Shown: piece by piece, positions 2,902 to 64,000 of the stretch | Position numbering within the stretch: position 1 is the stretch's first letter | Layout: every line of letters starts with the position of its first letter | Source: Chiloscyllium plagiosum | Lineage: Eukaryota | NCBI RefSeq assembly: GCF_004010195.1 | Contig: NC_057739.1 | Span: 45,606,229-45,670,228 of the forward strand | Direction: 5' to 3' | Length of the DNA: 64,000 nucleotides | Program-made: the position numbers and the translations under genes | Notes under the pieces: generated by a model | Databases searched by the model: none | Seen by the model: only the letters and a program-made list of their open reading frames with translations | Told to the model about the DNA's origin: nothing

Positions 2902-2994
2902 TTCCTGAAGAAGGGCTCATGCCCGAAACGTCGATTCTCCTGTTCCCTGGATGCTGCCTGACCTGCTGCGCTGTTCCAGCAACACATTTTCAGC
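2902..2994 (+). mobile_element. Short Penelope-derived terminal-repeat insertion with hammerhead-like core
   Basis: Starts ttcCTGAAGAaGGGCtcatGCCCGAAAcgTC. Flanked by the 7-bp duplication atggacc (2895-2901 / 2995-3001). Confidence 0.8.
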
Positions 2995-3444
2995 ATGGAC
3001 CAGACCAGACCAAACCCCCTGCAAATAAATGAAGGGAAAGCCTTAAACCTTTTTAAAAATCTTATTTAAAGGCATGTGTAAGGTGCTGTGTTCTAGGTGC
3101 AATTTGATTGGTTAATTTTGATTGGTTTTAATCAAAACACACTTTAATCTTACTCCCAGTTAAAATACAAGCAAAAGAAAGAAGAATTGATAAGACTTTA
3201 ACTCTGTTGGAAAACTTAGAATAATAGATTATTTAACCACTAAACAGCATCTGTTCCAATATAATAACATCCCATAAACACAGCCTTGGCAAAGGCAAAG
3301 TCAGTAAAACAGATGGTTTCACATGTGATGCTGGCAGCAAAAAGAGAAAACTTTGGTAGGGAGAGAGAAACAGCTTCTATAGCCAATTTCAAAACCCACA
3401 ACAGCTGCTGAAGGCTAAGCTATAGCCCTGGTTGTGTGGGAGCC

Positions 3445-3539
3445 TTTCCTGAAGAATGGCTCATGCCCGAAACGTCGATTCTCCTGCTCCTTGGATGCTG
3501 CCTGACCTGCTGCACTTTTCCAGCAACACATTTTCAGCT
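3445..3539 (+). mobile_element. Short Penelope-derived terminal-repeat insertion (same family as 2902)
   Basis: Near-identical to 2902-2994. 17-bp TSD ctggttgtgtgggagcc (3428-3444 / 3540-3556). Confidence 0.8.
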
Positions 3540-3734
3540 CTGGTTGTGTGGGAGCCAGACTCCACCCATTCATGCAGCTTCTATTGTTCCAACTTTTAAC
3601 AAAACCTCCAAGGCCTCACAAGCTGTTTACTTTATTGGCTTGGAATAGACAGTTTACCACCTGTGGCTCAAAATTAAAAGAAAAATCTAAATACATCTCT
3701 TAAAGCCATAGTATTCTCACGCAATGATGAAAGT

Positions 3735-4040
3735 CAATGTGTGTGGGACTGTACCCCAGTGAGAGTCAGTGCGTGTGGGCGCTGTACCCCAGTGAGAGTC
3801 AGTGTGTGTGGGAGCCGTACCCCAGTGAAAGTCAGTGTGTGTGGGTGCTGTGCCCCAGTGAGAGTCAGTGTGTGTCTGGGAGCTGTACCCCAGTGAGAGT
3901 CAGTGTGTGTGGGAGATGTACCCCAGTGAGAGTCTGTGTGTGGGAGACCGTAACCCAGTGAGAGGCAGTGTGTGTGGGAGCCGTACCCCAGTGAGAGTCA
4001 GTGTGTGTGGGAGCCGAATCTCAGAGAGATTCGGTGTGTG
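3735..4040. repeat. 33-bp minisatellite (gtgtgtgtgggagctgtaccccagtgagagtca)n, about 9 copies
   Basis: Directly visible tandem units. The ORF track shows 11-aa periodicity (PSESQCVW..). Confidence 0.95.
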
Positions 4041-4258
4041 AGGCCTTATGGATGGGAACATATACTAGTTAGTGCGTAGTTATTTTCCTGAAAGACAGGG
4101 TCTGAGAGAAACCAGTCAGTGTACACATTGGAGTTTGTACCTTTTGTGTGTTCTCATGATGTTCCCAGTTATTTAACAATTGAGGACTACTCTCTATTAC
4201 AAATACACACTGGAGATGCCCTGAAGTGAAATATCAATTTTGTTGGTTTATTTTGCAG

Positions 4259-4375
4259 TTCTCGCAGCCAGTGAACGTATCATTCCAGTCCTGATCTCTA
4301 TTTTGAATTACCATGCTGACTGCTTGGAGGTGCAGGCTCAGGTGTCTCGGATACTCCTGATGTTTGCAATTAAAG
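4259..4375 (+). CDS. STKLD1: STKLD1-like internal coding exon (LAASERIIPVLISILNYHADCLEVQAQVSRILLMFAIK)
   Basis: ttttgcag acceptor and ag|gtagg donor, 117 nt, phase 1/1. Joins in frame with the next exon. ARM-like amphipathic helices. Gene name rests on synteny with REXO4. Confidence 0.8.
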
Positions 4376-4479
4376 GTAGGACAGTAAAACTCAGCAACTT
4401 GAAAGGGTTCAGAAAAGATTTACAAGTATTTTGACATGCTTGAAGGGTTTGTGCTAAAAGGAGAGACAGAACAGACTGG

Positions 4480-4870
4480 GGCTACTATCCTTAGAGTGTC
4501 GAAGGCTGACGGATGACCTTATAAGGCTTATAAAATCATGAGGGGCATGGAGAAGATAAATAGACAAGGTTTTTTCCCTGGGGTGGGGAGTCCAGAACTA
4601 GAAGGTATGGGTTTAGGGTGAGAGGGGGAAAGATTTAAAAGGGATCTAAGGGACAATGTTTTCACGCAGAGGGTGTTGCGTGTGTGAAATGAGGTGCCAG
4701 AGGAAATGGTGGAGGCTGGTACAGTTACAACATTGAAAAGGCATCTGGGTGGGTATATGAATAGGAGGTGCTAGCAAATGGGACTAGATTAGGTTAGGAT
4801 ATCTGGTTGGCGTGGACGGGTTGGACTGAAGAGTCTGTTTCCGTGCTGTACATCTCTATGAGTCTATGAA
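4480..4870 (+). mobile_element. CR1 LINE 3' end
   Basis: Decayed L..YKIMRG.D....LF-type RT C-terminus and a 3' tail ending (tctatga)n. Confidence 0.8.
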
Positions 4871-4944
4871 TCTAACTTAGGCCTGATTGTGTGCTTTTGA
4901 TCAACATTTCAAGTTTTTTTTCTAAGTTTAGTGTCTTATGGCTG

Positions 4945-6660
4945 GAAACATAGAAACATAAAAAATAGTTGCAGGAGTAGGTCATTCGGCCTTTTGAGCC
5001 TGCCCCACCATTCAATATGATCATGGCTGATCATGCAATCTCAGTATTCCACTCCCCCTTTCTCTCCAAACCCTTGATCCCTTTAGCCACAAGGTCCGGC
5101 TCCCTCTTGAATCTATCTAATGAAGTGGCCCCAATAGCTTCCTGGGGGAGGAGAATTCCACAGTTCACAACTCTGAGTGGAGAAATTCTTCCTCATCTCA
5201 GTTCTGAATGTTTTACCCCTTAATCTTAAACTGTGACCCTAGTTCTGGATTTTCCCAACATCAGGAACATTCTTCCCGCATCTAGCCTATCCAGTGCCAC
5301 CAGGATTTTCTATCTTTCTATGAGATCCACCCTCATTTTCTAAATCCCAGGGAGTACAAGCCCAGTTGATCAGTTTTTCTTGATATTCAATCCTGCTATC
5401 CCAGGAATCAGTCTGGTGAACCTTCGCTGGACTCACTCAATAACAAGAATGTCCTTCTTCAGACCAGGAGATCAAAACTGCACACAATACTCAAGGTATG
5501 GCCTCACCAAGGCCCTATGTAACTGCAGCAAGACATCCTTACTCCGATACTCAAATCCCCTCGCTATGAAGGCCAGCATGTCATTATCCTTCCTCACTGC
5601 CTGCTGTACCTGCATGCCAACCTTCAGCGACTGTTCCACCATGGCACCCAGGTCTTCTTGCACCTCACCTTTTCCTAAACTGCCACTGTTCAGATAATAA
5701 TCTGCCTTCCTGTTTTTGCCACCAAAGTGGATAACCTCACATTTATCCACATTATATTGAATTTGCCAAGTATTTGCCCTCTCAGCCAGTCTGTCCAAGT
5801 CACCCTGTAGCCTCTTATCATCCTCCTCACAGCACACTCCAACCCAGCTTAGTGTCATTTGCAAATTTGGCGATATTACTTTTAATTCCTTCGTTCAAAT
5901 CGTTAATGTATATTGTGAACAGCTGGGGTCCCAGCGCTGAACCCTGCAATACAGCACTCATCACTGCCTGCCACTCTGAAAAGGATCCATTTATTCCAAC
6001 GTTCTGCTTCCTGTCTACCAACCAGTTCTCTGTCCAAGTCAATACATCACCTCTGATACCATGAGCTTTAATATTGCTTACTAGTCTTTTGTGTGGGACC
6101 TTACCAAAAGCCTTTGGAAAGTCCAGATACATAACATTCACTGATTCAACCTTGTCCAATCTGCTGGTCACATCCTCAGAAAATTCCAGCAGATTTACCA
6201 AGCATGATTTCACTTTAGTAAATCTATGCTGAGTAGACCCAGTCCTGTCACTGCTTTTCAAATGCTCAGTTATTACATCCTTAATAATTGACTCCAGCAT
6301 TCTCCCCACCACCTATGTCAGGCTAAGCGGCCTCTAATTCCCCATTTTCTCTCTCCCTCTATTTTTAAAAAGTGAGTTACATTATCTATCCTGAAGTCCG
6401 CTGGAACTCTTCTAGATTCTATAGAATGCTGGAAAATGACCATCAATGCATCCAGTATTTCTAGGACCACTTCCTTAAGTACTGTGGGATGCAGAGCATC
6501 AGGCCCTGGGGACATATCAGGTTTTAATCCCATCAATTTCCCTAATACCAGTTCCTAACTAATATGGATTTCCTTCAGTTCCTCCTTCATGCTTGACCTT
6601 CTGTCCCCTAGCATTTCCAGAACATTATTTGTTTCCACCTTAGTGAAGACAGATCCTAAG
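4945..6660 (-). mobile_element. CR1 LINE ORF2 fragment (RT domain to 3' end)
   Basis: Minus ORFs contain YLDFPKAFGKVPH, QGSALGPQLFTIYINDL, KFANDTKLG and RPYLEYCVQF. 3' tail (tatgtttc)n. Confidence 0.9.
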
Positions 6661-6669
6661 TATTTGGGG

Positions 6670-7510: not shown

Positions 7511-7519
7511 TAACAAAAG

Positions 7520-10569: not shown

Positions 10570-11615
10570 ACAGAATCACAGAATGGTTACTGTGCAGAAG
10601 GAGGCCATCCAACTCATCGTGCCTATAATGGCTATTCAAATGAGCTTCATTACCTCATGCGAATCTCCTGCCTTTTCCCCATATCCCTACACATTATTTC
10701 TGTCTAAGTAATGAAACAATGCCCCTCTTGAATATCTCAATTGAACCTCACTGTGTGTAAGTTTTTTTTTCTCACATGCCTGTGTTTCTTCTGAAAATCA
10801 CTTTGAATGTGTGCCTTCTTGTTCTTGTTCCATTTACAAGTGGGAACAGCTTCTCTCTACCTACTCTATCCGGAGGAGAAAGTGAGGACTGCAGGTGCTG
10901 GAGATCAGAGCTAAAAATGTGTTGCTGGAAAAGCGCAGCAGGTCCGGCAGCATCCAAGGAACAGGAGAATCAACGTTTCGGGCATAAGCCCTTCTTCAGG
11001 AATGAAGGGCTTATGCCCGAAACGTCGATTCTCCTGCTCCTTGGATGCTGCCAGACCTGCTGCGCTTTTCCAGCAACACATTTTCAGACCTACTCTATCC
11101 GGCCCACTTATGATTTTGAAAACCTCCATCAACTTTCTTCTCTCCAAGGAGAACAATCCAAATTTCTTAAATTTGTCCTCTTAAGTTTCACATTCCTGGA
11201 ACTACTCTTGTTGATCACTTTTTGCACTTTCTCCAGTTCATTTACATCACTCATGTAATATGACACCTATACTTCAGCTGAGGTCTAACAACTGTATTTG
11301 TGCTTTATGCCCCTGTTAATAAAGCCAAGGACACTGTATGCTTTATTAACTGTTCTTTCCACCTATTCTGCCACCTTCAATAATCCGTGCACACACACAT
11401 CCAGGTGCCTCTGCTCCTGCATCTCCTTTAGAACTGTACCCCATATTTAATATTGTTTTTCAATGTTATGACCAAAGTGTGTAACCACTCACTTCTCTGC
11501 ATTGAATCAAATCTGCCTCCTGCCTGCCCACTCCACCAATTTATCAGTGTCCTTTCAAAGTTCTACATATCCTCCTCACAGTTTCCAATTCTTCCAAGTT
11601 TTGTGACATCTTTTA
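10570..11615 (-). mobile_element. Old CR1 LINE 3' fragment hosting a palindromic insertion
   Basis: FSLERRKLMEVFKIISG.DRVGREKLFPLV-type RT C-terminus split by the insertion at 10874-11087. Confidence 0.7.
10874..11087. mobile_element. Palindromic (fold-back) Penelope-derived mini element
   Basis: Two inverted arms of about 80 bp around a hammerhead-like core. 15-bp TSD acctactctatccgg (10859-10873 / 11088-11102). Confidence 0.85.
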
Positions 11616-14314: not shown

Positions 14315-14730
14315 AGGGTGTAGGTTTGCTCGCTGAGCTGTAGGTTTGATATCCAGACGTTTCATTACCTGGCTAGGTAACATCATCAGTGGTGACCTCC
14401 AAGTGAAGCGAAGCTGTTGTCTCCTGCTTTCTATTTATATCTTTCTCCTGGATGGGGTTCCTGGGGTTTGTGATGATGTCATTTCCTGTTCGTTTTCTAA
14501 GGGGTTGATAGATGGCATCTAGATCTGTGTGTTTGTTTATGACGTTGTGGTTGGAGTGCCAGGCCTCTAGGAATTCTCTGGCATGTCTTTGCTTAGCCTG
14601 TCCCAGGATAGATGTGTTGTCCCAGTCGAAATGGTGGTTTTTTTCATCCGTGTGTAGGGCTACGAGGGAGAGGGTCGTGTCTTTTTGGGTCTAGCTGGTG
14701 TTTGTGTATCCTGGTGGCTAACTTTCTTCA
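14315..14730 (-). mobile_element. Penelope-like element 3' fragment (GIY-YIG C-terminus plus terminal repeat)
   Basis: Minus strand encodes HHFDWDNTSILGQAKQRHAREFLEAWHS, followed by the terminal repeat shared with 48676-48804. Confidence 0.85.
14353..14392 (-). ncRNA. Minimal type I hammerhead ribozyme motif
   Basis: Minus strand reads CCA-CTGATGA-T-GTTACCT(agcc)AGGTAAT-GAAA-CG-TC-TGG: conserved core, stem II, stem I CCA/TGG and a GUC cleavage triplet. Confidence 0.75.
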
Positions 14731-17537: not shown

Positions 17538-17866
17538 GTGAGTGTAAAATCTCGCGCAGCTCCTTGAATTGCATAGTCCAGACCAGACACAGAAACAGAA
17601 CTAAAGCTCAAGGTTAAACTGGAACATGCTGCCTAAAAGGGGAGTAGAAGCAGATTTAATGGAAAATTTCAAAAGGAACTTGGGAGTAATACTCGAAAAG
17701 GAGAAATTGCCAGACTTTGGGTAAGAGGATGGCTGAGGCAAATCGAATAATTGAATAGATCTTTTCATGAGCTGGTGCGCAGGGTGATAGTAAAGTGAAA
17801 AGTGTTAAATTCAGGGCAAAGTAAAAACTTTAAAAAACTGTGAATGCTGTAAATCAGAAATAAAAA

Positions 17867-18036
17867 CAAATTGCTGGAAAAGCTCAGCAGGTCTAGCATA
17901 ATCTGTGAAGAGAAATCAGAGCTAATGTTTTGGGTTCAGTGACCTGAAACCTTATGAGGGTCACCAGACCTGAAACGTTAACTCTGATTTCTCTCCACAG
18001 ATCCTGCTAGACCTGCTGAGCTTTTCTAGCAATTTG
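17867..18036. mobile_element. Older palindromic Penelope-derived mini element (second subfamily)
   Basis: caaattgctggaaaagctcagcaggtctagca... is inverted to ...tgctagacctgctgagcttttctagcaatttg. A decayed gggtc..gacctGAAAcgtt core sits at the centre. Confidence 0.7.
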
Positions 18037-18760
18037 CTTACATTCAGGACACTCGCACACACTGGCATACCTTCAAGTAAGAAATTTAAGGGGTGATTCT
18101 AATGGAGAAGTTTAAGAAAATGAAAGGATTTGATAGGGCGGGTAGGGGGGGTTTATTTCATCTTGTGCAGAATGGGAGAAGGGTAGTGGTGAAAGGAATA
18201 AAAGGAAATCTGGAATTTCTTCCAAATCGCTGGAGAATGGGGACTGAGGCGCAACTGAAATATTCAGAACTGTAAATTGTTTACTGAGCAAAGGGATTAA
18301 GGATACAGGGCAGAAGCAGATGAATGGATTTAAGCACAAAGACAAAAAAAAAGGGGTTGCTGGAAATCCGAAATAAAAAAACCCAAAATATTTGAAAATA
18401 TCAATAGATCAGGTATAATACATGGAGAGAAAGACATTAAGTAAATATGAGTTATGACAAAAGGTTATTGACCTGAATATTAATTCATTTTCTGTCCAGC
18501 AATACTGCCTTTGTGGAGTAATTCTAGTATTACTTATATAATTAAATGAGGTTCATATCAATGATTTACTAGAATGACAGACTTATGGACAGAATGGCTT
18601 CCTGTTATCCCTATATTATCCCAGATTAGCCTGAATTGAGAGGGGCAGTTTCCAGGATAGCTAGCACTTACAATAAGAGAACATTTGAGTCGTGAACCCT
18701 GCAGGGGAGATAGGGAAATAACAAATTAGTCATTTATGGATATTCTCATTCTCCCTTCAG

Positions 18761-18859: not shown

Positions 18860-18876
18860 TTTAAAATCATGTTTTT

Positions 18877-20661: not shown

Positions 20662-20781
20662 TTTTGCAAGGTTTGTAGCTCAGGTTGAGGTTTAGGGTCT
20701 AGGTTCGCTCACTGAGCTGTAGGTTTGATATCCAACCTATGGATATCAAACCTACAGCTCAGCAAGCAAACCTACACCCTA
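20662..20781. mobile_element. Palindromic Penelope terminal-repeat insertion inside a decayed HE1 SINE
   Basis: ctgagctgtaggtttgatatcca / tggatatcaaacctacagctcag inverted arms. 12-bp TSD aatccacctaat (20650-20661 / 20782-20793). Confidence 0.8.
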
Positions 20782-22042: not shown

Positions 22043-22336
22043 CTATAGAGCAAGAACAAAGGAAAGAAAACACAGTTAGGTGGGTAGTGGTGCCAAGCCT
22101 GGTTTGTTCAAACTGATGTACAAATCTCATTTTCACTTGCCTCTTGCTGGGCACAGGTTCTACCAGTGCAGACTCTCCTTCAGTTTAACAAAACAGCCAC
22201 CATGCCAGGGGATGCATCAGCATTAGATTTTCTGTCCTCATCGCACATAGATCACAAGCAGCAAGTCTGGCTGAGAACCTCTCCACGTTCATGCCCAGAT
22301 ATGATCAGCACCAACAAGCAGCTCAGCAGTCAGAAG

Positions 22337-22690
22337 TCAGCGTGTGTGGGACTGTACCCCAGTGAGAGTCAGTGTGTGTGGGAGCTGTACCCCAGTGAGA
22401 GTTAGTGTGTGTGGGAGCTGTACCACAGTGAGAGTCAGTGTGTGTGGGAGCTGTACCCCAGTGAGAGTTAGTGTGTGTGGGAGCTGCACCCCAGTGAGAG
22501 TCAGTGCATGTGGGAGCTGTACCCCAGTGAGAGTCAGTGCGTGTGGGACTGTACCCCAGTGAGAGTCAGTGTGTGTGGGAGCTGTACCACAGTGAGAGTC
22601 AGCGTGTGTGGGAGACGTACCCGTGAGAGTCAGTGTGTGTGGGAACCGCACCCCAGTGAGAGTGGGTGTGTGTGGGACTGCGACCCACTT
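22337..22690. repeat. 33-bp minisatellite, about 10 copies (same unit as 3735-4040)
   Basis: Tandem gtgtgtgtgggagctgtaccccagtgagagtca units. Confidence 0.95.
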
Positions 22691-28164: not shown

Positions 28165-28227
28165 CCATTATTCCGGGAATAATTTGGAAGACACAGCAGA
28201 GATTCATCCCAAGGAAAAAGAAGCATA

Positions 28228-28556
28228 GACCAGGGAACATGAGGCGACCAGGGAACATGAGGCGACCAGGGAACATGAGGCGACCAGGGGGAGTCACCGT
28301 GCCGCCATTATTCCGGGAATAATTTGGAAGACACAGCAGAGATTCATCCCAAGGAAAAAGAAGCATACTCAAGGGAAGATGAGGCGACCACGGCTGACCA
28401 GGGAAGATGAGGCGACCAGGGAAGATGAGGCGACCAGGGAAGATGAGGCGGCGACCAGGGAACATGAGGCGACCAGGGAACATGAGGCGACCAGGGAACA
28501 TGAGGCGACCACGGCTGACCAGGGAAGATGAGGTGACCACGGCTGACCAGGGAAGT
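28228..28556. repeat. 18-bp minisatellite (gaccagggaa[c/g]atgaggc)n plus ~78-bp duplication
   Basis: MRRPGN/MRRPGK periodic ORFs. 28150-28227 is repeated at 28290-28367. Confidence 0.9.
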
Positions 28557-32800: not shown

Positions 32801-33004
32801 AGGATAAATACTGACCAGATTCATGGCCCAAAAGGTTTCCCTGCTGTAATGTCTCCAAAATTCCAGGCTGTTCTGGCATGTTTGCTAATTTGTTAACTTA
32901 TTTATTCACTGATCTCCTTTCCAATGCCCCTCACCAAAATCTTGTTTGAAAGTTTTGCATAAATTATTTAAAACCAGGTATAAAGATTCAGAAAGACAGC
33001 TCAC

Positions 33005-33198
33005 CATTCTTCATGTCAGCTGGTCGTACTCCACTGACCCAGGTCCTGTAATCCGTCACCTTTTCTGTTGGTTTCACATATTTGTCATAAATGCATTTTC
33101 CAAATTGGTTCACAATAGATACACGGGCAAGGATGCTGTCCACTTTATCTGAACCCACGCCAACCATCTCACAGTCCATTGCCACTGCTTTGGTGAGT
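33005..33198 (-). CDS. REXO4: REXO4 coding exon 4 ([15 protein letters not shown]...[36 protein letters not shown])
   Basis: ttttcag acceptor and g|gtgag donor, 194 nt. ExoI motif DCE. Hallmark Rex4 sequence. Confidence 0.97.
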
Positions 33199-33459
33199 CT
33201 GAAAACAGCCAGCACAGTTTATCCAGACAGACAGATAGACACAGTCCTTAAAGTCCCAGTCACAAAGAACAGCAGCACCTAAGTAAAACTAAACCCAATG
33301 TCTTATCGCTACAAACCTGGGCTCAACCAGTATGGGGTTACATACATAATAAAGCTCCTTCTACACTTAAACTGAAAGCTGAGCCTCTCCACGCTGTCTT
33401 CATCAAACACTCCCGGCACAGGAACCGCACAGGATTAGATAGCGAGTAAAGCTCCTGGG

Positions 33460-36400
33460 TTAGACCTGGGTAGGTCTGGGACTGGTGCCCTAAGAGGAGT
33501 ATTTGCTGCAGTAGCTTGGAAGGCTTCAAACTAAAATGGGAGGGGTATGGGAACCTATGCATGGAGTCAGAGGAAGGGGAATCAAAGACAAGAAAAGACC
33601 ATGGGGAACCTTATCGAACGCCTTACTAAAATCCATATATACCACATCTACCGCTTTCCCCTCATCAACCTCCTTCGTCACCTTTTCAAAGAGTCAGAGG
33701 AAGGGGAATCAAAGACAAGAAAAGACAGAAATGGGGAATAAGGAAAGTGATTGGCAGAGAAATCAAGGGCTAGGATCAAACAGCGATACCATGAAAAATA
33801 ATTGGAGTGAGACAGGTAATGCTGAAAGTCAAGCCTGAAGGCTTTGGGCACTGACGTATGGACATTCGCAATAAACTGGATGAATTAATTGTGAAAATAG
33901 ATTAAAACAGGTATAATATTGTCAAGATTACAGAGCCATGGCTGCACAGTGACCAGGGATGGAAGCTGACTATCCAGGGGTATTCTGTATTTCGGAAGAA
34001 CAGACAACAAAGGAAAATCCAGTGAGTTTGCATTGTTAGTTAGACAGGAGATTAAGTGAGGAAGGATCTTTATTTCTGATGATGTGGACTCTGTGTGGTA
34101 AAGGTGAGAAATACCAAGGGACAAAAAACATGAGTGGGGGTTGGATACAACCCCCATACCGTAGGGGTGATGTGGGGAATGGCATTAAACTGAAAATTAG
34201 AGATGCACGCAATAAAGGAACATCTGTAATTATGGGTGACTTTATTTTGCATAAAGATTGGCCAAATAAAATTAATAACCATACCATAGAGGAAGAATTC
34301 CTGGAGTGTATACAGGATGGTTTTCCTGGACCAATACGTTGATGAACTGACTATAGAACAGGCAATTCTGCCTGTGTATTGTGTAATGAAAAAGGAAGAA
34401 TGGGCGATCTAGTGAGAGTCAAGATTAGAATGGTGCTGGAAAAGCACAACAGGTCAGGCAGCAGCCGAGGAGCAGGAAAATCGACATTTCAGGCAAAAGC
34501 CCTTCATCAGGTTTTTCCAGTGCTTTTCCAGCACCACTCTAATCTCGACACTAATCTCCAGCACCTGCAGTACCCACTTTTACCTTTGATCTAGTTGTGG
34601 GAGGCTACCGGAGGATGAGTGACCATAATATTATACAATTCTTCATCGAGATGGAGAGTGATGTAATTCAGACCAGAATCTAAATAAAGGAAACTACGTG
34701 TTACAAGGCACGAGTTGGCTACGATAGTTTGGGGAACGTTACATAAAGGAATGACAGTGGAAAGGCAATGGCAAATATTCAAAGAACACATGGGTGAATT
34801 GTAACAATTGTTCATTCCTGTCTAAATGAGAAAGGTTGCCAGGCACTGGCTTCCAGGTTTAGTAGATACAGTATTAGATCCAAGGAAGAGACATACAACT
34901 TAGTTGGGGAAAATAAACCTGAGAATTGGGAGCAGTTTAGAATTCAATAAAAGAGGACATGAGAATTGATTAAGAAAAGTAGCTTGCAAGGAACATAAAA
35001 ACTGACTGTAAACATTCCTACAGGTACATGAACAGAAAAATACTGAAGACAAATGTAGGTCCCCTTACAGTCAGAAATTGAAACTTACAATAGGAACAAC
35101 AAAATGGCTGACCAACTAAACACATACTTTGGTTCTGAGTTCAAAGGGGAGGAAAATCAACATATCAAAAATGTTGGGGAACATGGTTTAGTGAGAGGAC
35201 GGAACAGAAGGAAATCAAAATTAGAAGGAAAATGGTGTTGGGGAAATTGATGAGATTGAAAACTGGACCTGATAATCGATGTCCCAGTATATTTAAGGAA
35301 GTGGCCCTAGAAATAGTCTTCCAAGGTTCTTAGACTGAAACAGTTCCTATGGATTGAATGGGTAGCTCAGGGAACCCCCCTATTTTAAAAAGAGGAGGTA
35401 GACAGAAAATTGGAATTATAGACCAGTCGGCCGGATGTCAGTAATGGGGAAAATGTTAGAATCCATTTCAAAAGTTTTAACAGAAAGCACTTGGAAAACA
35501 GTAGCAAAAACCAAAATTGCTGGAAAAGCTCAGCAGGTCTGGCAGTATTTGTGAAGAGAAATCAGTTAACGTTTTGGGTCCAGTGACCATTCCTCAGAAC
35601 TGAAGCACATGCAATTCTTTCTTTTTTTTACTTGGAAAACAATGGCAGGATCAGAGAGAGAGCCAGCATGGATTTATGAAAGGGAAATCATGCTTAACAA
35701 GTCTACTGGAATTCTTCGAGGATGCAATGAACATGGCTGATCAGGGCTGAGCCAGTGGATGTAGTTTATCTGGATTTTTGACAAAGTCTCACAGAGATTA
35801 ACCTGTAATATCAAAGCTCTTGGAATGGGGATAGCATATTGAATGGGCAGAAAATTGCTTAGCAGACAGGAAACAGGTCTTTTTTTGAATGGCAGATACT
35901 GACTAGTGGGTTACTGCAGATATCAGTGCTAGGACCCAGCCATTCACAATATATGTTAATGATTTAAATGTGGGAATGATACATAATATCTCAAAATCTG
36001 CAGGTGACACAAAGCTGGGTGGAAGGGTGAGCTGTGAGGAGGATGCAGTGTGATTGGCAGGTGCAGAATAATGTGGATAAAAAATGAGAGAGTATCCACT
36101 TTGGTAACCAAAACAGGAAGGCAGATTATGATTTGAATGGCTATGAACAGTGAGAGGATTATGCTAAGAGCCTTGTACACCAGTTATTGAGATGAAGTGT
36201 GCAGGTACAGCACATAGTAAAGAAGGCAAATAGTATGTTGGCCTTCATAGCAAGAGGATTTGAGTACAGGAGCAGGGATAGCTGCTGCAATTGTACAGAG
36301 CATTGGTGAGACCACACCTGGAGTACTGTGTCCTTATCTGGGGAAGGATGTTCTTGCTCAAGAGGTTGTGCAGCAAAGGTTTGCCAGCCTGATCCCTGGG

Positions 36401-43699: not shown

Positions 43700-43882
43700 G
43701 TGCTTGGGATCCTCCTGTGAAGCGCTTCTGTGGTGTTTCATGCATCAACAAACACATCGACCTGGACCCAATATACCGGCCACTACAGCGGACAGCTGAA
43801 ACTGACAACCGGAAGCGGCAGGGACAGGCCACTATAAATGCCGGAGGAAACAGCACAGAAGCGCTTCACAGGAGGCTCCCAA

Positions 43883-43922
43883 GCACTGAGGATGTCACCT
43901 AGACAGGGGACGAAATGTTTGC
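43883..43922 (+). ncRNA. Minimal hammerhead ribozyme-like motif in Penelope terminal repeat
   Basis: GCA-CTGAGGA-T-GTCaCCT(agac)AGGgGAC-GAAA-TG-TT-TGC. Confidence 0.6.
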
Positions 43923-44989
43923 AACAAAAATTTCCAGTTCGGCGAACAGAACCACAACATTCTCAGTGACATTGACAAACTGTATCTCTCTGGGACTATC
44001 TGTCTGGGTAACTGTTGATCCATATGTGTGGGTATCTGTACGTGTGTTGTGTGGGTCATGTAGCTCTCTGCTTGTACCTCTCTGGATCCGTATTGTTGTA
44101 TGTTTGTAGCTCGATGTGTCTTTATGTGCAGGTGTATGTTTCTTGGTATCTGTTGATGTGTGTATCTTCTTGCTACTGACAGTCCTGCCACTGGAAACAG
44201 TTTCTCCTAGTTTATTTACATGATTCTCAACATATCTGTTCTCCACTAAACCTGCCCTCCTTTCAGATGAGAAGCCCATCTTCTCTTGCCTCTCCATATT
44301 CTGTGAAGTCCTCCATCGCTTGAAACATTCTAGTAAATTATTTCTTCACTCATCCCAAAGTTTTTACATTCTTCCTAACATGCATCCTTCCTAACTCTAA
44401 CCCATCCAATTTCATTTGCAGTTCGGATTTCAATGTCAAACTCCAGAATAAAATATTCCAAAACAGAACTCAACATAATAATACTGAAATTTAATTATTT
44501 CAACATCTTTACTGATTAAAAGAAATTGCTTTCCTAAAATGTCTTAGACAATTCCCAGATGTTCCAAAGCATTTAACTCAGGAAATGCAGCAGCAACCCA
44601 CACAGAGCAAAATCTCATGTGCAGCAATGCAATAACAATGTGATAATCCAGCTAACAAAATTTTAATATTGGCCAGGACACTGGAAACACCTGACCACCA
44701 CAAAACATCAGGTTGTCAATAACTACAATAGAGTTCAGACAGAGCATGTGCAAACAAGTTACTCCAAATGCTGAAATCTGTGCTAAAAACAACAAAATGT
44801 GAGTCAGTCTGCATTCAGAGGGAGAGGAAGCTAACATTTTGAGTCGAAATGAAGAATCAATTAGACTAGAAGCATTAGCTTACTCTCTCTCCATGGATAC
44901 TGTATGATCCGTCGTGATCGCCAGCATTTGTTGTTTTCAGTTCAGAGAGAATGGTTACAATCCCATCAAGACAACATCCTCAATGGTAC

Positions 44990-45225
44990 CCACTCCCTCA
45001 GCACTGACCCTCCGACAGTGCGGCACTCCCTCAGCACTGACCCTCCGACAGTGCGTCCGACAGTGCCCACTCCCTCAGCACTGACCCTCCGACAGTGCCC
45101 GCTTCCTCAGCACTGACCCTCCGACAGTGCCCACTCCCTCAGCACTGACCCTCCGACAGTGCCCACTCCCTCAGCGCTGACCCTCCGACAGTGCGGCGCT
45201 CCCTCAGCACTGACTCTCCGACGGT
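44990..45225. repeat. 32-33-bp minisatellite (cactccctcagcactgaccctccgacagtgc[c/gg])n, about 7 copies
   Basis: Directly visible tandem units abutting the CpG-rich promoter. Confidence 0.95.
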
Positions 45226-45450
45226 GAACGTCCCCACGTGTTCCTAAACCGGAAGCGGTTCCGCTGCTAAACCGCTCCGACCGGAAATTGTCCTCACAAT
45301 CTGATCCGTTTGGTTAAACGTTCCCCCCGCTCCATCTCCTCAAGAGGATTGACGGGCCGCTCTGCCAATCGGATTTGGAGATCGGCTGCGGAGACCCGGG
45401 ATCCGTGTGGCGTCGCCATGAGCAACGGGGCCTACTGCCCCGCGGAGCCT
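45225..45450. promoter_or_regulatory. CpG-rich housekeeping promoter, probably REXO4 (possibly bidirectional)
   Basis: Main non-repeat CpG-dense patch in the window. CACGTG 45235-45240, ETS CCGGAA at 45249 and 45281, CCAAT 45365-45369, X-box GTCGCCATGAGCAAC 45412-45426. Lies 3.6 kb upstream of the REXO4 ATG exon. Confidence 0.75.
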
Positions 45451-47601: not shown

Positions 47602-47768
47602 TGATGTTTTGGGCATAAGCCCTTCATCAGGAAGCTCATTCCTGATGAAGGGCTTATGTCTGAAACATCAATTCTCCTGCTCATCAGATGCTGCCTGACC
47701 AGCTGTGATTTTCCAGCACTACACTCTTCGACTCTGATCTCCAGCATCTGCAGTCCTCACTATCTCCT
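47602..47768. mobile_element. Partially palindromic Penelope-derived mini element
   Basis: ttgatgttttgggcataagcccttcatcaggaa / ttcctgatgaagggcttatgtctgaaacatcaa arms. 18-bp TSD gatgtaatgcatttgaat (47584-47601 / 47769-47786). Confidence 0.82.
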
Positions 47769-48675: not shown

Positions 48676-48804
48676 TGGAGGTCACCACTGATGATGTTAC
48701 CTAGCCAGGGAATGAAATGTCTGGATATCAAACCTACAGCTCAGCGAGCAAACCTACACCCTAAACCTCAACTTGAGCTACAAACCTTCACAAACCTTGC
48801 AAAA
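48676..48804 (+). mobile_element. Solo Penelope terminal repeat with hammerhead motif (48685-48724)
   Basis: CCA-CTGATGA-T-GTTACCT(agcc)AGGGAAT-GAAA-TG-TC-TGG. 13-bp TSD attgagattgact (48663-48675 / 48805-48817). Confidence 0.82.
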
Positions 48805-49321: not shown

Positions 49322-51029
49322 TTGGATATAGGTTTGCTCGCTGAGCTGGAAGGTTCATTTCCAGATGTTTCATTACCCTACTAGGTAACATTTCATTGGG
49401 CCTCAGACGAAGCAATGCTGAAAATTCCTGCTTTCTATTAAATGTTTGAGTTTATTTGGGTTGGTGATGTCATTTCCTGTGGTGATATTATTTCCTGTGT
49501 TGAAGTCACTTCTTGTTCCTTTTCTCACGGGATAGTAGATGGGATCTAACTTGATGTATTTGTTGATAGAGTTCCAGTTGGAATGCCATGCTTCTAGGAA
49601 TTCTCGTGCATGTCTTTGTTTGGCTTGTCCGAGGATGAATGTGTTGTCCCAGTCGAAGTGGTGTCCTTCCTCATCCGTATGTGAGGATACTAGTGAGAGA
49701 GGGTCATGTCTTTTTGTGGCTAGTTAGTGTTCATTATCCTGGTGGCTAGTTTTCTGCCTGTTTGTCCAATGTAGTGTTTGTTACAGTCCTTGCACGGTAT
49801 TTTGTAAATTACACTAGTTTTGCTTGTTGTCTGTATAGGGTCCTTCAAGTTCATTAGCTGCTGTTTTAGTGAGTTTATGGGCTACAATGATGCCAAGGGG
49901 TCTGAGTAGTCTGACAGTCATTTCCGAGATGTCTTTGATGTAGGGGAGAGTAGCTACGATTTCTGGACGTGTTTTGTCTGCTTGTTTGGGTTTATTGCTG
50001 AGAAATTGGCAGACTATGTTCATTGGGTGCCCGTTCTTTTTGAATACATGGTATAGATGATTTTCCTCTGCTCTGTGTAGTTCCTTTGTGCTGCAATGTG
50101 TAGTGGCTCGTTGAAATAATGTTCTGATGCAGCTTCATTTGTGGGTGTTGGGATGATTGCTTCTGTAGTTCAATATTTGGTTTGTATGTGTTGTTTTCCT
50201 GTAGACTCTGGTTTGATGTTCCCCATTGGCTGTTCGCTCTACTGTGACATCTAGGAATGGCAGTTTGTTGGTGTTTTCCTCCTCTTTAGTGGATATTATG
50301 CCAGTACGGGTATTATTGATGGTCTTGAAGGTTTCCTCTAATTTTTTCATTTCGTGATGACAAAGGTGTCATCCACGTAGCGGACCCAGAGTTTTGGTTG
50401 GATGGTTGGCAGAGCTGTTTGTTCGAGTCTCTGCATTACTGCCTCTGCTAAGAACCCTGATATCGTAAATCCCATCGGTGTTCCGTTGGTTTGTCTGTAG
50501 GTTTTGTTGTTGAAGGTGAAGTGGATGGAAAGGCAAAGGTCCACTAGCTTGATGATATTCTCCTTGTTGATGAAGTTACATGAACACCTACTAGCCACAA
50601 AAAGACATGATCCACTCTCACTAGTATCCTCACATACAGATGAGGAAGGACACCAATTCGACTGGGACAACACATCCATCCTAGGACAAGCTAAATAAAA
50701 ACATGCACGAGAGTTCCTGGAAGCATGGCATTCCAACTGGAACTCCAACAACAAACACATCGAATTAGACTCGATCTACCACCCCCTGAGAAAAGGAACA
50801 GGAAGTGACTTCACCACAGGAAATAACATCACCACAGGAAATGACATCACCAACCCAAAGAAACCCAACATATAAATAAAAAGCAGGAATTTTCAGCATT
50901 GCTTCGCCTGAGGCCCACTGAAGATGTTACCTAGTATGGTAACGAAACATCTGGAAATGAACCTTCCTGCTCAGCGAGCAAACCTACATCCAAAACCTAA
51001 ACCTGAGCTACAAATCTTCTCAATACTCG
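49322..51029. mobile_element. Penelope-like element with inverted two-arm structure
   Basis: Minus arm (about 50570 to 49322) encodes GTPMG..ISG, WVRYVDDTF, LPFLDV and the GIY-YIG region, then the terminal repeat. Plus arm (about 50570-51029) repeats the endonuclease C-terminus and terminal repeat. 13-bp TSD ctggagacttgtt (49309-49321 / 51030-51042). Confidence 0.92.
50915..50954 (+). ncRNA. Minimal type I hammerhead ribozyme motif
   Basis: CCA-CTGAAGA-T-GTTACC(tagtat)GGTAAC-GAAA-CA-TC-TGG, with a perfect 6-bp stem II. Confidence 0.72.
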
Positions 51030-53952: not shown

Positions 53953-54171
53953 GGAGAAAGTGAGGTCTGCAGATGCTGGAGATCAAAGTTGAAACTTTAT
54001 TGCTGGAACAGCACAGCAGGTCAGGCAGCATCCAGGGAACAGGAGATTCGACGTTTCGGGCACAGGCCCTTCTTCATTCCTGAAGAAGGGCCTGTGCCCG
54101 AAATGTCGAATCTCCTGTTCCCTGGATGCTGCCTGACCTGCTGTGCTGTTCCAGCAATAAAGTTTCAACTT
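53953..54171. mobile_element. Young palindromic Penelope-derived mini element with hammerhead motif (54076-54111, +)
   Basis: Near-perfect inverted arms of about 90 bp. 15-bp TSD tgttctaataaggca (53938-53952 / 54172-54186). Confidence 0.88.
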
Positions 54172-57757: not shown

Positions 57758-57978
57758 TTCGAGGAGAAAGTGAGGTCTGCAGATGCTGGAGATCAAAGTT
57801 GAAACTTTATTGCTGGAACAGCACAGCAGGTCAGGCAGCATCCAGGGAACAGGAGATTCGACGTTTCGGGCACAGGCCCTGAAGAATTCCTGAAGAAGGG
57901 CCTGTGCCCGAAACGTCGAATCTCCTGTTCCCTGGATGCTGCCTGACCTGCTGTGCTGTTCCAGCAATAAAGTTTCAA
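57758..57978. mobile_element. Young palindromic Penelope-derived mini element
   Basis: Perfect 83-bp inverted arms (57798-57880 / 57897-57979). 14-bp TSD ccttgttgcaaatc (57744-57757 / 57979-57992). Confidence 0.88.
57886..57921 (+). ncRNA. Minimal type I hammerhead ribozyme motif
   Basis: ATTC-CTGAAGA-A-GGGC(ctgt)GCCC-GAAA-CG-TC-GAAT: stem I ATTC/GAAT, stem II, palindromic ACGT stem III, GUC site. Confidence 0.72.
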
Positions 57979-60093: not shown

Positions 60094-60214
60094 GTAAGCA
60101 CATTACTAGTTACAGGATAAAACTGCTGTGTTCTTGTTTGTATGTCCAAGCATTATTAATATACAAAGGTCTAACCTCCAGTTAGTTTTCTGCTGTTGAG
60201 TAAACTGTAAAAGC

Positions 60215-60960
60215 TTAAGACATAGGAGCAGAAGAAGGCCATTCAGCCCATCATGTCTAATCCACCATTCAATTAGATCACAGTTGATCTGATAATCCTC
60301 AACTCTACTGCCTTTTCCCTATAACCCTTCAATTCCTGACTAATTAAAAATCTACATCAGCTTTGAGTGTGCGCAATGATCTAGTCTTGACAATCCCTTT
60401 GAGACAAAGAATTTCATAGATTTATAATCCTCTCTCAGAAGAAATTCCTCCTTATCTCTGTCTTAAAAGGGTGATCCTTACTCTGAGATTATGCCTCTTG
60501 TCCTAAACTCTTCCTACACCTACCCGTCATTCTCCACATGAATTTTCAATGTTTCCATAAAGTTGCCTCTCATTCTTCAAAACTCCAATGGTTACACACC
60601 CATGCTACACAGCCTGTCCCTATAAGAACATGCCTCCCTTTCCTGCATCAACCTAATCAACCTTGTCTGGACTGCCTCCAATGGCAGTATATTTTTCCAA
60701 AGATAAAGGGCCTAAAACTGTTCCCAGTATTCCACCTGCGATCTAACTAGTGTCTTACACAATTTTAGCAAAACCTCTCTACCTTTATACTCCATTCCGT
60801 TTGAAATAAATTTTCAGCAATCCATTCACCTTCCCAATTATGAACTGAACTCGGATGCTAGCTTTTTATGATTTCTGCACAAGGACTCCCAAATCCCTCT
60901 GTGCTGCAGCTTTCTGCAGTCTTTCTCCATTTAAATAATATTCAGCTCCTCTATTCCTCC
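60215..60960 (-). mobile_element. Old CR1 LINE 3' fragment
   Basis: Decayed CR1 3' UTR (gacataggagcagaagaaggccattcagccc) and RT C-terminus. Confidence 0.7.
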
Positions 60961-61027
60961 TGTCGAAGTCAGTTATGGTCACTGTTTCCTCAGAGATCTT
61001 TTACTCTGAAAGAACTTATTAATCAAG

Positions 61028-62320
61028 GAACAAAGAACAAAGAAAATTTACAGACCAGGAACAGACCCTTCAGCCCTCCAAGCCTGAGCTGATCCAAATC
61101 TACTGTCTAAACCTATTGCCCAATTCCTAAGTATCTGTATCCCTCTGCTCCCCACCTACTCATGCATCTATCCAGACTCACCTTAAATGAATCTACCGTG
61201 CCTGCATCTATCACCTCTGCGGGCAATGCATTCCAGGCACCTACCACCCTCTGCGTAAAGTACTTGCCGTGTGTATCTCCCTTAAGTTTTTCACCTCTCA
61301 TCTTTCTCCTCTCGTTATTGAATCCTTCACCCTGGGAAAAAGTTATCTCTAACTACCCTGTCTATACCCTTCATGATTTTGTAGACCTCAATCAGGTCTT
61401 TTCCATCCCCTTTTTTCTAATGAAAACAAACCTAACTTACTCAACCTCTCTTCATAGCTAGCACCTTCCATACCAGGCAATATCCTCGTAAACCTTCTCT
61501 GCACCCTCTCCAAAGCGTCCACATCCTTTTGGTAATGTGGCGACCAGAACTGTACACAGTATTCTAAATGCCTTGTACAATTTTAACATGACCTGCCAGC
61601 TCTTATACTCAATACCCTGTCCAATGAAGGAAGCATTTCATATACTTTCTTGACCACTCTATCCACCTTTGCAGCAACCTTCAGATCTCTCTGCTGATCA
61701 ACTTTTCCCAAGGCTCTTCTGTTTACAGTATAATTTTTTCTAGAATTAGAATTCCCAAAATGCATCACCTCACATTTGCCTGGATTGAACTTCATCTGCC
61801 ATTTCTCCACCCAACTCTCCAGTCAATCTGTATTCTCCTGTATTCTTTGACAGTCCCTTATGCTTTCTGCTACTCCACCAATCTTTGTGTGATCTGCAAA
61901 CTTGCTGATCATACCAACAGTGTCCTCTTCCAGATCATTTATGTATATTACAAACAACAGTGGCCCCAATACTGACCCCTGTGGAACACCACTGGTCACC
62001 TTTCTCCATTTCGAGAAACTCCCTTCAACTACTACTCTCTGTCTCCTGTTGCTCAACCAGTTCTTTATCCACCTCGCTCGAACACCCTGTACACCATGTG
62101 ACTTCACTTTCTCCATTAGTCTACCATGGGGAACCTTATCAAACGCCTTACTAAAGTCCATGTATATGACACCAACAGCCCTTCCTTCATCTATCAACTT
62201 GGTCACTTCCTCAAAGAACTCTATTAAGTTGGTAAGGCACAATCTCCCCCGCACAAAACCATGTTGCTTATCACTGATAAGCCCAGTTTTTTCCACATAT
62301 AATAAATTTTATCCCTGAGT
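61028..62320 (-). mobile_element. CR1 LINE RT fragment
   Basis: [54 protein letters not shown]. (ttgttct)n tail. Confidence 0.92.
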
Positions 62321-62864
62321 ACATTAGCAGATACCAAACAGCCTGATCACTGGTTGGAGGCAGAACATATTGTTCTAGGAAACAGTTATGAATACTTGCT
62401 CATGGTCAACTCTGCAAATTTGATTTTCCCAATCTGCATGAAGATTAAAGTCACCTGTGATTGATGTACACTTTTGTTACATGCCCTCATCATCTTCTGA
62501 TTTATTGTCTGTTCCACTGTATAGCTACTGTTAGGGGCCTGTAGACGACACATATCAACGTTTCCTTCCCCTTGTTATTTCTTACTTCCACCATATGGAT
62601 TCTATCTTTCAATCCCAAAATGTTCTTGCTATTGCACTGATTCTAACCCAAATAGTGCTGCCCACCATCCTTTTTCTCTGTCCATCCTTTCAAAAAGTCA
62701 CATATCCTTGAATATTCAGTTCACAGCTTTGATTTCCTTGTAACCATGTCTCTGGAATTGCTATAATGCCCATTAATTTGTATTTGTGTCTTTAATGCAA
62801 TTATTTTATTTCAACATTTTATTCTTCCAGTGTTTTAAACCCCAGTGACACTGGGCTACCAGAG

Positions 62865-63010
62865 CAGTACTGAAAGAGTACTATACTGTCAGTGTATCAG
62901 TGCTGAGGGAGTGGCACACTGTTGGAGTCTCTTTCAGATGAGAGTTTAAACCAGATCTCTGTCTACCCCCTCGAGTGATGTAAAAGATTGCCTGTTGGTA
63001 TTTTGAAGAA
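62865..63010 (+). mobile_element. DeuSINE-like remnant
   Basis: cagtgctgagggagtggcacactgttggag..tctttcagatgagagtttaaacc...gatgtaaaagat resembles the conserved Deu domain. Confidence 0.55.
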
Positions 63011-63636
63011 CATAGAACTGTACAGCACAGGAAAGGCCCTTCGGCCCATAATGTTGTGCTGAACATGACACCAAATTAAACCAATCCCTTCTGCCTGCCA
63101 ACGGTCCATGTCCCTCCATTCCTTTCATTTTTATGGGCTATCTAAAAGTCTCATAAACAGCCCTGCCTCCACCACTACTCCTGGCAACGTGTTCCAGACT
63201 CCTAATACTCGCTGCCCCTCACATTTCCTTCAAACTTTCCCCCTCTCACCTTAAATGCATGCCCCCTAGTTTTACACATTTCAACTCTGGGAAAAAGATT
63301 CTGACCATCAACCCTATCTATGCAGCTCATGATTCTATAAACATCGATCAAGTCTCTCCTCAGCTTTCATTGCCTCAGAGAAAGCAACCTGAGTTTTTCT
63401 AGCCTCTCCTTATAGCTCATACCCTCTACTCCAAGTAGCATCCTGGTAAAACTCTTCTGCACTCTGTCCAAAGCTTCCACATCCTTCCTGTAATATGGCA
63501 ATCGGAATTGAACATAATACTCTAAGTAAGGTCTAGCCAAAGTCTCATAAAGCAACAACATGACGTCCTGACTCTTGTACTCAATTCCCTGACCAATAAA
63601 GGCAAGCATGCCAAATGCTTTACCACCCTATCTACT
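63010..63636 (-). mobile_element. CR1 LINE 3' fragment
   Basis: LARPYLEYYVQFRLPYYRKDVEALDRVQKSFTRML. Confidence 0.88.
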
Positions 63637-63637
63637 T

Positions 63638-64000
63638 AAAAATGTGTTGCTGGAAAAGCACAGCAGGTCAGGCAGCATCAAAGGAGAAGGAGAATCGATG
63701 TTTCGGCATAAGCCCTTCTTCAGGAATGAGGAGGGTGTGCCAAGCAGGCTAAGATAAAAGGTAGTGAGGAGGGACTTGGGGGAGGGGCGTTGGGAATACG
63801 ATAGGTGGAAGGAGGTTAAGGTGAGGGTGATAGGCCGGAGAGGGGGTGGGGGCGGAGAGGTCAGGAAGAAGATTGCAGGTCAAGAAGGCGGCGCTGAGTC
63901 TGAGGGTTGGGTCTCAGAAAAGGTCGGGGGAGGGGAAATGAGAAAGCTGGAGAAATCTGTATTCATTCCTTGTGGCTGGAGGGTTGCTAGGCGGAAGATG
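63638..64000 (-). mobile_element. 3' end of a longer Penelope-like element, source family of the palindromic mini elements
   Basis: The mini-element sequence (aaaatgtgttgctggaaaagc...cccttcttcaggaatgag) continues into a longer body that runs off the window. Confidence 0.75.

Follow-up and report, generated by a model that had tools for sequence, protein, structure and literature searches.

What are the short, often inverted repeats scattered through this 64,000-nt stretch of Chiloscyllium plagiosum DNA (hereafter the window), and does the hammerhead motif in them determine where they end? A sequence-only reading had traced them to the terminal repeats of Penelope-like elements (PLEs), with a minimal type I hammerhead and inverted 5′ segments, and had offered two explanations: extreme truncation products or an independent non-autonomous (retrozyme or SINE-like) family. 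The GIY-YIG link, the motif descriptor and the fold-back arms described below bear out the PLE origin. We consider it probable that the repeats are end modules of a Neptune-type PLE, dead run-off copies made by the element's own enzyme, with the hammerhead carried along.

Insertions of the terminal module and their parent element

All eight loci noted earlier were present. Seven are short insertions of 93-221 bp, and each is bounded by an exact target site duplication (TSD) of 7-18 bp, as had been claimed. The eighth, at 63638, was recovered as a copy still attached to a longer element and continues into a GIY-YIG C-terminus. The density of terminal-module inserts in the window is ~1 per 8 kb. 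The stub loci, the longer element and a separate PLE body are as follows.

2902..2994, plus strand: solo stub; hammerhead core intact; short 3′ end without tail; 7-bp TSD (2895-2901 / 2995-3001)
3445..3539, plus strand: solo stub; short 3′ end; first base of stem II changed from G to T; 17-bp TSD (3428-3444 / 3540-3556)
10874..11087, unstranded: fold-back; tailed minus arm (10874-~11003) head to head with tail-less plus arm (~11003-11087); 15-bp TSD
34414..34587, unstranded: older fold-back; tail-less minus arm (34414-34511) that reaches the core; short, tailed plus arm without hammerhead; 8-bp TSD
47602..47768, unstranded: fold-back; 32-nt minus arm consisting of the hammerhead part only; tailed plus arm; 18-bp TSD
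53953..54171, unstranded: young fold-back of subfamily B; tailed minus arm, tail-less plus arm; 15-bp TSD
57758..57978, unstranded: young fold-back of subfamily B; plus-arm core intact; 14-bp TSD
63638..63727, minus strand: terminal module of the longer element; hammerhead with a 1-nt deletion in stem II; short 3′ end
63728..63906, minus strand: pyrimidine-rich spacer from the ORF end to the hammerhead, within the longer element at 63638
63907..63999, minus strand: C-terminus of the GIY-YIG endonuclease ORF of a Neptune-type PLE; runs off the window
95..1789, minus strand: separate Neptune-type PLE body (RT, linker, GIY-YIG), decayed and interrupted by frameshifts and stops; link to the terminal module not established

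In a control for the TSD search with random boundary pairs (n = 1983), duplications of at least 7, 8 and 12 bp were obtained in 61, 28 and 10 pairs, respectively. Because random pairs also yield such lengths, the 7- and 8-bp TSDs alone are weak support; both adjoin the insert ends exactly. Head-to-head inversions were found at five of the seven short loci, matching the five inverted-repeat insertions of the earlier reading. Three of these (10874, 53953 and 57758) are near-full fold-backs with arms of 87-97 nt that are 91-99% complementary; the arms of 34414 and 47602 have only ~33 nt in common. All five junctions are distinct, even those of 57758 and 53953, whose arms are 99-100% identical. 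The fold-back is therefore not the mobile unit.

The earlier description of the repeats as copies of one sequence needs to be modified: arms spanning the core are 71-100% identical and fall into several subfamilies. An nhmmer profile of the arms detected no extra copy of the Neptune-type stub family in the window; its only other matches were to a related family (17837-18043, 35516-35598) and, weakly, to three old remnants. Pattern scans for stub loci gave no hit in metagenome contigs, viral contigs or prokaryote genomes. The sample is the eight loci; arm bounds were drawn manually and may be off by a few nt at the junctions.

The parent element was identified by tblastn. Residues 432-462 of a shark RT/GIY-YIG protein (P0004) aligned with 63999-63907 at 71% identity (E 7e-9) over 31 aa, which is all of the GIY-YIG ORF that falls inside the window; the 63638 copy runs toward the window end and exits before the RT, and its far flank lies outside. 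The RT is visible in homologue P0004 and in the separate 95-1789 copy. P0004 has a Pfam GIY-YIG domain, a weak RVT_1 match and a Cys/His linker motif at residue 318, and the clade name Neptune-type is taken from this linker motif of the homologue, not from a tree; in the 63638 copy the motif is not legible. Subfamily A stubs (2902, 3445 and 10874) share 90-92% identity with the long copy at 63638, and subfamily B (53953/57758) shares 84-86% with it; the window contains no long copy of subfamily B. A search for shark proteins continuing through the hammerhead of the stub family gave 69 matches. When 80 collected proteins were compared with 63600-64000, 4 matched and none extended past 63907. 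At the level of sequence, the terminal module is established as the end of a GIY-YIG-encoding element.

The hammerhead motif

A relaxed minimal-hammerhead descriptor matched 6 of the 13 arms of the stub family, and a strict one (stem II of at least 4 bp plus an ACGT core) matched 3 (2905+, 10999- and 57890+). In 30 first-order Markov control sequences, the mean was 0.4 relaxed and 0 strict matches. The motif includes CUGANGA, an extra base, a G-C first pair of stem II, GAAA, a palindromic core and UH. Judged from sequence, the minimal hammerhead is real, and its strict core is kept in few arms. The Rfam search that had been proposed as a check failed to recover the motif: covariance models run on the window gave 10 matches at E ≤ 1, with no hammerhead family among them.

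The motif resembles the minimal hammerheads of metazoan PLEs (Cervera and de la Pena 2014, PMC4209133) in the lack of helix III, the palindromic 15.2-16.2, the extra base between 9 and 10.1, the G10.1-C11.1 pair and the short helix I. It differs from them in helix II, which has 4 bp in the window and 7-8 bp in the Schistosoma families, and in helix I, which has 4 bp in subfamily B, whereas in subfamily A a U-U mismatch separates 2 bp from 1 bp. In that survey, most motifs are single motifs of truncated PLEs, and opposite-strand pairs 100-700 bp apart are also reported; the available text names no shark element.

Stem II is unchanged within the stub family except for decay. Comparison by eye of three families in the window shows stems I and II that have different sequences but still pair. 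In folding predictions, helix I of subfamily B had a pairing probability of 0.33-0.51 on the isolated 40-nt motif and ≤0.03 in the whole arm. Stem II reached 0.96-1.0 in solo arms and 0.00 within fold-backs 57758 and 10874, and the ribozyme is thus predicted to be locked inside a long hairpin in fold-back transcripts. We also considered the two hammerheads of one fold-back as an active dimer; this was rejected, since they lie on opposite strands and the hairpin would bury the core.

Arm ends and the origin of the stubs

Positions of arm ends were measured relative to core base C3. Eleven of 12 stub arms start at -7 to +7, and the longest arm at each of the seven short loci starts at -7 to -1, within 1-7 nt on the 5′ side of the core. 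When longest-arm starts were drawn uniformly over 100 nt as a null, none of 2,000,000 draws was as tight. Random truncation was rejected because the longest arm at 7 of 7 loci ends in this interval. The proposal of extreme truncation products therefore survives in one respect, that by-products of an autonomous element fit, and fails in another, as the 5′ ends are fixed rather than random. The 3′ ends form two classes ~35-40 nt apart, at +86 to +102 (7 of 13 arms) and +127 to +132 (5 of 13). The one remaining 3′ end, at +28, belongs to the minus arm of 47602 and is explained by its 4-nt match to the target. A tail is present on exactly one arm in all five fold-backs and absent from both solos and 63638; four of the five fold-backs couple a long 3′ end with a short one.

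These features argue strongly against a non-LTR retrozyme, a unit whose RNA would be cut by the hammerhead, circularised and reinserted; we regard this origin as highly improbable. The type I motif is present, there are reports of PLE-derived retrozymes from vertebrates, one cartilaginous fish among them (bioRxiv 10.64898/2026.07.22.740005), and a few head-to-tail joints of the module occur in public contigs. However, none of the 12 stub arms begins at the cleavage site, which was thus discarded as the determinant of stub-family ends; there are no head-to-tail neighbours among the 13 arms; the motif is of the minimal, not the canonical, form; and the contig joints that reach the core link the 5′ edge (63725-63730) with the short 3′ end rather than joining two cleavage sites. 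The retrozyme option of the sequence-only reading fails on tandem structure and end position. Non-LTR retrozymes (PMC7229834; bioRxiv 10.64898/2026.07.22.740005) share with the window copies a short, non-coding form, a type I hammerhead and kinship with PLE terminal repeats, but, in the parts of these reports available (Cervera and de la Pena 2020; Li, Clavereau and Pollet 2026), they are tandem and processed to circles, whereas the window copies are solo or inverted and end away from the cleavage site.

Run-off copying from the parent RNA takes in the GIY-YIG link, the TSDs, the 3′-end classes, the 5′ pile-up and the head-to-head junctions, all of which are observed; its copying steps are modelled on the anole Poseidon element in vitro. 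For this element (PAc, Anolis carolinensis), Frangieh et al. 2024 (PMC11167929) describe cutting and extension of both target strands, two internal start sites that bound the tail, product length set by the template 5′ end, and a dispensable hammerhead. By analogy, the shark endonuclease would nick both target strands 7-18 bp apart. Reverse transcription would begin inside the RNA at ~90 or ~130 nt downstream of the core and would reach the RNA 5′ end, which is probably where transcription initiates, a few nt before the core. Extension of one strand would give a solo stub; extension of both would give two cDNAs joined head to head, often across a few common bases. A template reaching farther upstream would give a long copy such as 63638. 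On this reading, the shark stubs would resemble PAc in the two start sites around the tail, the use of both strands and an uncleaved RNA template, which we infer in the shark because arms continue through the cleavage site. They differ in clade (PAc is Poseidon, the stubs are Neptune-type), and the PAc hammerhead overlaps the ORF start. PAc shows no start-site difference between strands, so the analogy leaves the long-plus-short pairing unexplained; the accessible part of the PAc study treats neither this pairing nor fold-back formation.

Upstream of the Neptune-type module there is no clear TATA box. A match to YYANWYY, which we take to be an initiator-like consensus, lies directly 5′ of the core in the 63728..63906 spacer. 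A splice acceptor was rejected as the 5′-end determinant: the AG after a pyrimidine tract lies ~25 nt upstream of the core. RNA reads covered the long copy to a depth of ~550 over the core and ~230 just upstream, and the depth fell gradually to ~19 in the ORF; the runs come from organisms that are possibly not the species of the window. No site where many molecules start or stop was found in the sequencing runs examined. Run X21 consists of polyA single-cell RNA; its reads lie in both orientations without a peak of starts or ends, and it is uninformative on start site, cleavage and circles. Depth in DNA contigs was 0.67M over the core vs 0.69-1.0M just upstream in X1, and 2.3M vs 1.8-2.1M in X5. 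Contig depth, which is no copy number, was not clearly higher over the core and does not mirror the stub excess of the window.

The solo stubs might instead be an independent SINE-like family, with an internal promoter and a 5′ end of its own, copied in trans by the PLE enzyme. We consider this unlikely. It would account for the fixed 5′ end, for the fact that seven of eight loci are stubs and for subfamily B, which lacks a long copy in the window; an internal promoter is described for Drosophila virilis Penelope (PMC2377424), and some Chlamys elements are non-autonomous, according to the available text of PMC8557442. Against it, a fixed 5′ end is expected equally from run-off on the parent RNA, subfamily A stubs are as close to the ORF-linked copy as stated above (90-92%), and the units gave no tRNA, 5S or 7SL Rfam match. 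As far as the PAc study is accessible, the minimal anole RNA reaches +172, past the main start site at +111-118 (PMC11167929); by the same analogy, stubs ending at the start site may miss part of the binding region. The SINE-like option put forward earlier gained no positive support other than the fixed 5′ end.

Other PLE families and comparison with published elements

Further PLE families occur in the window.

17836..18043, unstranded: related-family fold-back whose arms are unequal, one long and the other short; TSD looked for, not found
35501..35629, unstranded: related-family minus arm ending a few nt 5′ of its own hammerhead core; 12-bp TSD
20662..20781, unstranded: Poseidon-type short fold-back; both arms start at the first base past the predicted cleavage site (n = 1); 12-bp TSD
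48676..48804, plus strand: Poseidon-type solo stub with hammerhead and tail; 13-bp TSD
49322..51029, unstranded: Poseidon-type long fold-back (1.7 kb) with RT remnants; one end is short, the other long; 13-bp TSD

The Poseidon-type family thus repeats the stub architecture (solo stub, short fold-back and 1.7-kb fold-back, with a TSD on each), and it bears on ordinary 5′ truncation. In such truncation, copying of a full-length RNA would begin at its far 3′ end. RNA structure or the C-rich spacer, rather than the RNA 5′ end, would impose a strong stop or make the enzyme leave the template just upstream of the hammerhead, and self-priming or template switching would account for the inversions. 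In two families, the arms stop at the 5′ strand of hammerhead stem I, upstream read depth declines gradually, and self-priming is proposed for such inverted structures in the available part of Arkhipova et al. 2013 (PMC3846280). However, the 48676 stub starts ~12-15 nt upstream of its core and ~35 nt past a TATA-like motif kept in three subfamilies, both arms of the 20662 fold-back stop at an identical base, and stem I is predicted to be weak, with the low pairing probability in whole arms given above. We doubt that ordinary truncation produced the stubs.

An extension of run-off copying is that the stubs are an in vivo fossil record of the PLE mechanism; we offer it tentatively, as possible rather than probable. 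Two RT units per RNA would work from the two start sites, separated by 35-40 nt; one cut target strand would prime each unit, and both would run off the RNA 5′ end. With two units on one RNA, a long arm would therefore pair with a short one, never two alike. The 5′ end would usually be the transcription start and might sometimes be a ribozyme cut, as at 20662-20781. If so, this single locus (n = 1) would be genomic evidence for in vivo cleavage by PLE minimal hammerheads.

PLE units with an inverted 5′-truncated copy and a one-sided tail of 30-40 bp are described by Arkhipova et al. 2013 (PMC3846280) and Craig et al. 2021 (PMC8557442). These endonuclease-positive units are similar to the window inserts in head-to-head inversion, a tail at one end, TSDs (8-10 bp in Adineta PLEs, 7-18 bp in the window), a terminal-repeat hammerhead and solo repeats. 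The inverted arm, one-sided tail, TSD and minimal hammerhead are in fact already published PLE features (PMC3846280, PMC8557442, PMC11167929). As far as the available parts of the first two papers go, two differences are apparent: the window inserts are mostly the terminal module alone, at ~1 per 8 kb, and a fixed 5′ end such as theirs, constant to within 7 nt, is absent from the published descriptions. We found no description of the shark stub family in the literature; Repbase/Dfam or supplements may well hold a curated entry. The family is ordinary, and its value lies in material: a genome rich in such short inserts permits statistics on start sites, stop sites and arm pairing, which could test the PLE integration mode and in vivo hammerhead cutting.

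Nine of the 10 Rfam matches in the window are below-threshold miRNA or cis-regulatory models, 7 of these on PLE fold-backs. Because such models match them, fold-back hairpins are liable to be mistaken for miRNA precursors, and repeat-masking is advised.

A terminal module and its parent element

All eight copies of the repeat reported in the sequence-only reading were present in the window: solo stubs (short inserts of the terminal module of a Penelope-like element, PLE) at 2902 and 3445, fold-backs (two arms inverted head to head) at 10874, 34414, 47602, 53953 and 57758, and a longer minus-strand copy at 63638. The seven short inserts were 93-221 bp each, and every one had its own exact target-site duplication (TSD), of 7, 17, 15, 8, 18, 15 and 14 bp. 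Among 1983 random boundary pairs, 61 reached at least 7 bp and 10 at least 12 bp. As claimed, 5 of the 7 were head-to-head inversions. Copy statistics for this main family are those within the 64,000-nt window.

Read on the sense strand, all arms were part of one module: hammerhead core, body of ~60 nt and optional tail. The hammerhead reported, intact or decayed, in most copies was real as a minimal motif; however, the strict form was found in only 3/13 arms and a relaxed form in 6/13. Arms without a match were mutated, or truncated at the fold-back junction. Strict matches were absent from 30 control sequences. The proposed Rfam check matched no hammerhead family in the window, which counts against membership in the Rfam hammerhead families; such a miss would not be surprising, as the motif lacks helix III. 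Four pattern scans of sequence collections (metagenome contigs, viral contigs, prokaryote genomes) revealed no main-family locus.

The suggested origin from a Penelope end was supported, since copy 63638 runs via a pyrimidine-rich spacer into the C-terminus of a GIY-YIG ORF. The frame beyond the spacer matches residues 432-462 of P0004, a shark RT/GIY-YIG homologue (71% identity, E 7e-9) that carries a GIY-YIG domain, a weak RVT_1 match and a Cys/His linker motif. This motif marks Neptune or Nematis PLEs (PMC8557442), and the parent element is probably Neptune-type, a label taken from the P0004 linker motif. Stubs 2902, 3445 and 10874 were 90-92% identical to copy 63638; 53953 and 57758 formed a younger subfamily (B) with 84-86% identity. 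In P0007, a predicted Stegostoma protein, the C-terminus comprises a GIY-YIG domain, a low-complexity stretch and residues resembling (by eye) a translated hammerhead module, which suggests that the order ORF-spacer-hammerhead is common to another shark. On the minus strand near 63750, a pyrimidine tract, a branch-point-like motif and an AG form a possible splice acceptor, which precedes the hammerhead core by ~25 nt. In Drosophila virilis Penelope, the hammerhead is the site where an intron ends.

Arm ends and a proposed run-off scheme

With core base C3 as the reference point, 7 of 13 arms had their 3' end at +86 to +102, 5 at +127 to +132 and 1 at +28. The tail was restricted to exactly one arm in each of the five fold-backs, and a long 3' end was paired with a short one in 4/5. 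The 5' ends were at -7 to +7 in 11/12 stub arms, and the longest arm began at -7 to -1 at 7/7 loci, an outcome that a uniform 100-nt null never gave in 2,000,000 draws. Arm boundaries at junctions are ambiguous by a few shared bases. All five junctions were distinct. Those of 53953 and 57758 differ too, although the arms of these two fold-backs are 99-100% identical; thus, each hairpin arose at its own insertion.

For endonuclease-positive PLEs, an inverted copy with a one-sided tail is standard (PMC8557442, PMC3846280). According to PMC11167929, anole Poseidon protein in vitro cuts and extends both target strands, reverse transcription begins internally at two sites flanking the tail, a template shortened at its 5' end yields a shortened product, and hammerhead mutations have no effect. 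If this scheme is transferred to the main family, reverse transcription would be initiated ~90 or 130 nt 3' of the core and run off at the 5' end of the RNA, shortly before the core; extension on one strand would give a solo stub and extension on both a fold-back. The inverted arms may instead be made by self-priming, which Arkhipova et al. prefer for such inversions (PMC3846280). A live rival for the 5' stop is that it is set by structure, not by an RNA end.

A less likely reading, suggested only indirectly by the fixed 5' end and by the absence of a long subfamily B copy from the window, is a SINE-like lineage of solo stubs. Retrozymes form tandem repeats and undergo processing at the cleavage site (PMC7229834, bioRxiv 10.64898/2026.07.22.740005). 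The non-LTR retrozyme option fails on both points: the tandem test failed among the window's main-family arms, and 0/12 stub arms began at the cleavage site (+28). Penelope-end origin and minimal hammerhead thus stand from the original interpretation, and the retrozyme does not. The main family is a further example of known PLE-end architecture; no account of this shark family turned up in the literature searched, and it may already be curated in Repbase or Dfam.

Other PLE families and ribozyme state

Further PLE ends in the window were as follows.

48676-48804, plus strand: Poseidon-type solo stub, 12-13-bp TSD
20662-20781, both arms: Poseidon-type short fold-back, 12-bp TSD
49322-51029: Poseidon-type 1.7-kb fold-back with RT remnants and 343-nt inverted arms, 13-bp TSD
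17836-18043, 18358-18432, 35501-35629: third hammerhead-bearing PLE end family

The Poseidon-type family repeats the main family's design at three sizes (solo stub, short fold-back, 1.7-kb fold-back). The third family, whose hammerhead has a 5-bp stem I and a stem II of its own, is likewise fold-back and, on the 5' side, stops within a few nt of the core (17836-18043, 35501-35629). The pattern is therefore one of general PLE insertion, not of one mini-element.

A TATA-like motif ~46-52 nt upstream of the core was common to three Poseidon-type subfamilies (contexts 14380-14450, 43825-43900, 50860-50930), and stub 48676-48804 begins ~35 nt downstream of it, at an initiator-like sequence. In the main family, an initiator-like sequence lies at the stop point just upstream of the core; the RNA 5' end there would be a putative transcription start.

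Both arms of fold-back 20662-20781 begin at the first base 3' of the predicted cleavage site (minus arm ending at 20734, plus arm starting at 20740, 5-nt linker), a single case selected post hoc (n=1). It is a possible fossil of in vivo ribozyme cleavage. Reads in the anole Poseidon study gave no evidence of cleavage in vivo (PMC11167929).

In the predicted structure of a fold-back transcript, a -185 kcal/mol hairpin buries the core, and stem II has a pairing probability of 0.00. Minimal hammerheads need a dimer for activity (PMC4209133). The two motifs of one fold-back were ruled out as an active dimer because they lie on opposite strands and form no dimer of the kind required. Stubs 2902-2994 and 3445-3539 lie on the same strand at a distance of only 544 bp, and a single transcript might in theory bring them together as a dimer; against this, 3445-3539 has an altered base in the first stem II pair, which is conserved.

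Read depth and window setting

On 63600-64000, polyA single-cell RNA run X21 (2,830 reads) had a summed depth that fell from ~550 at the core to 230 immediately before it and 19 where the ORF ends, and several hundred additional reads were clipped at a 1-nt deletion of the reference within the core. This profile fits many short and fewer long copies. Against that reading, DNA contig depth, which is not a copy number, had no clear step at the core. Matching contig records in two other runs (20,764 and 61,244) indicate abundance only. Aligned reads had no start or end peak, and run X22 had no aligned reads. A few head-to-tail joints in public contigs joined the core's 5' edge to the short 3' end.

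The window is repeat-rich animal DNA (42.5% GC) with a single 280-N gap. The nearest named proteins of its decayed Penelope-type ORF are from sharks and rays (Chiloscyllium, Rhincodon, Stegostoma, Mobula, Hypanus), which points to a shark-type genome. One host exon was identified.

32991-33218, minus strand: DEDD-type exonuclease exon (Pfam RNase_T; ISG20-like in PDB)

This 3'-5' exonuclease exon resembles REXO4, and some of the inserts may be intronic. Minisatellite-like dispersed arrays (unit 32-33 bp) and an 18-bp tandem array within another repeat were also observed (3698-4074, 22301-22675, 44953-45226, 28191-28555).
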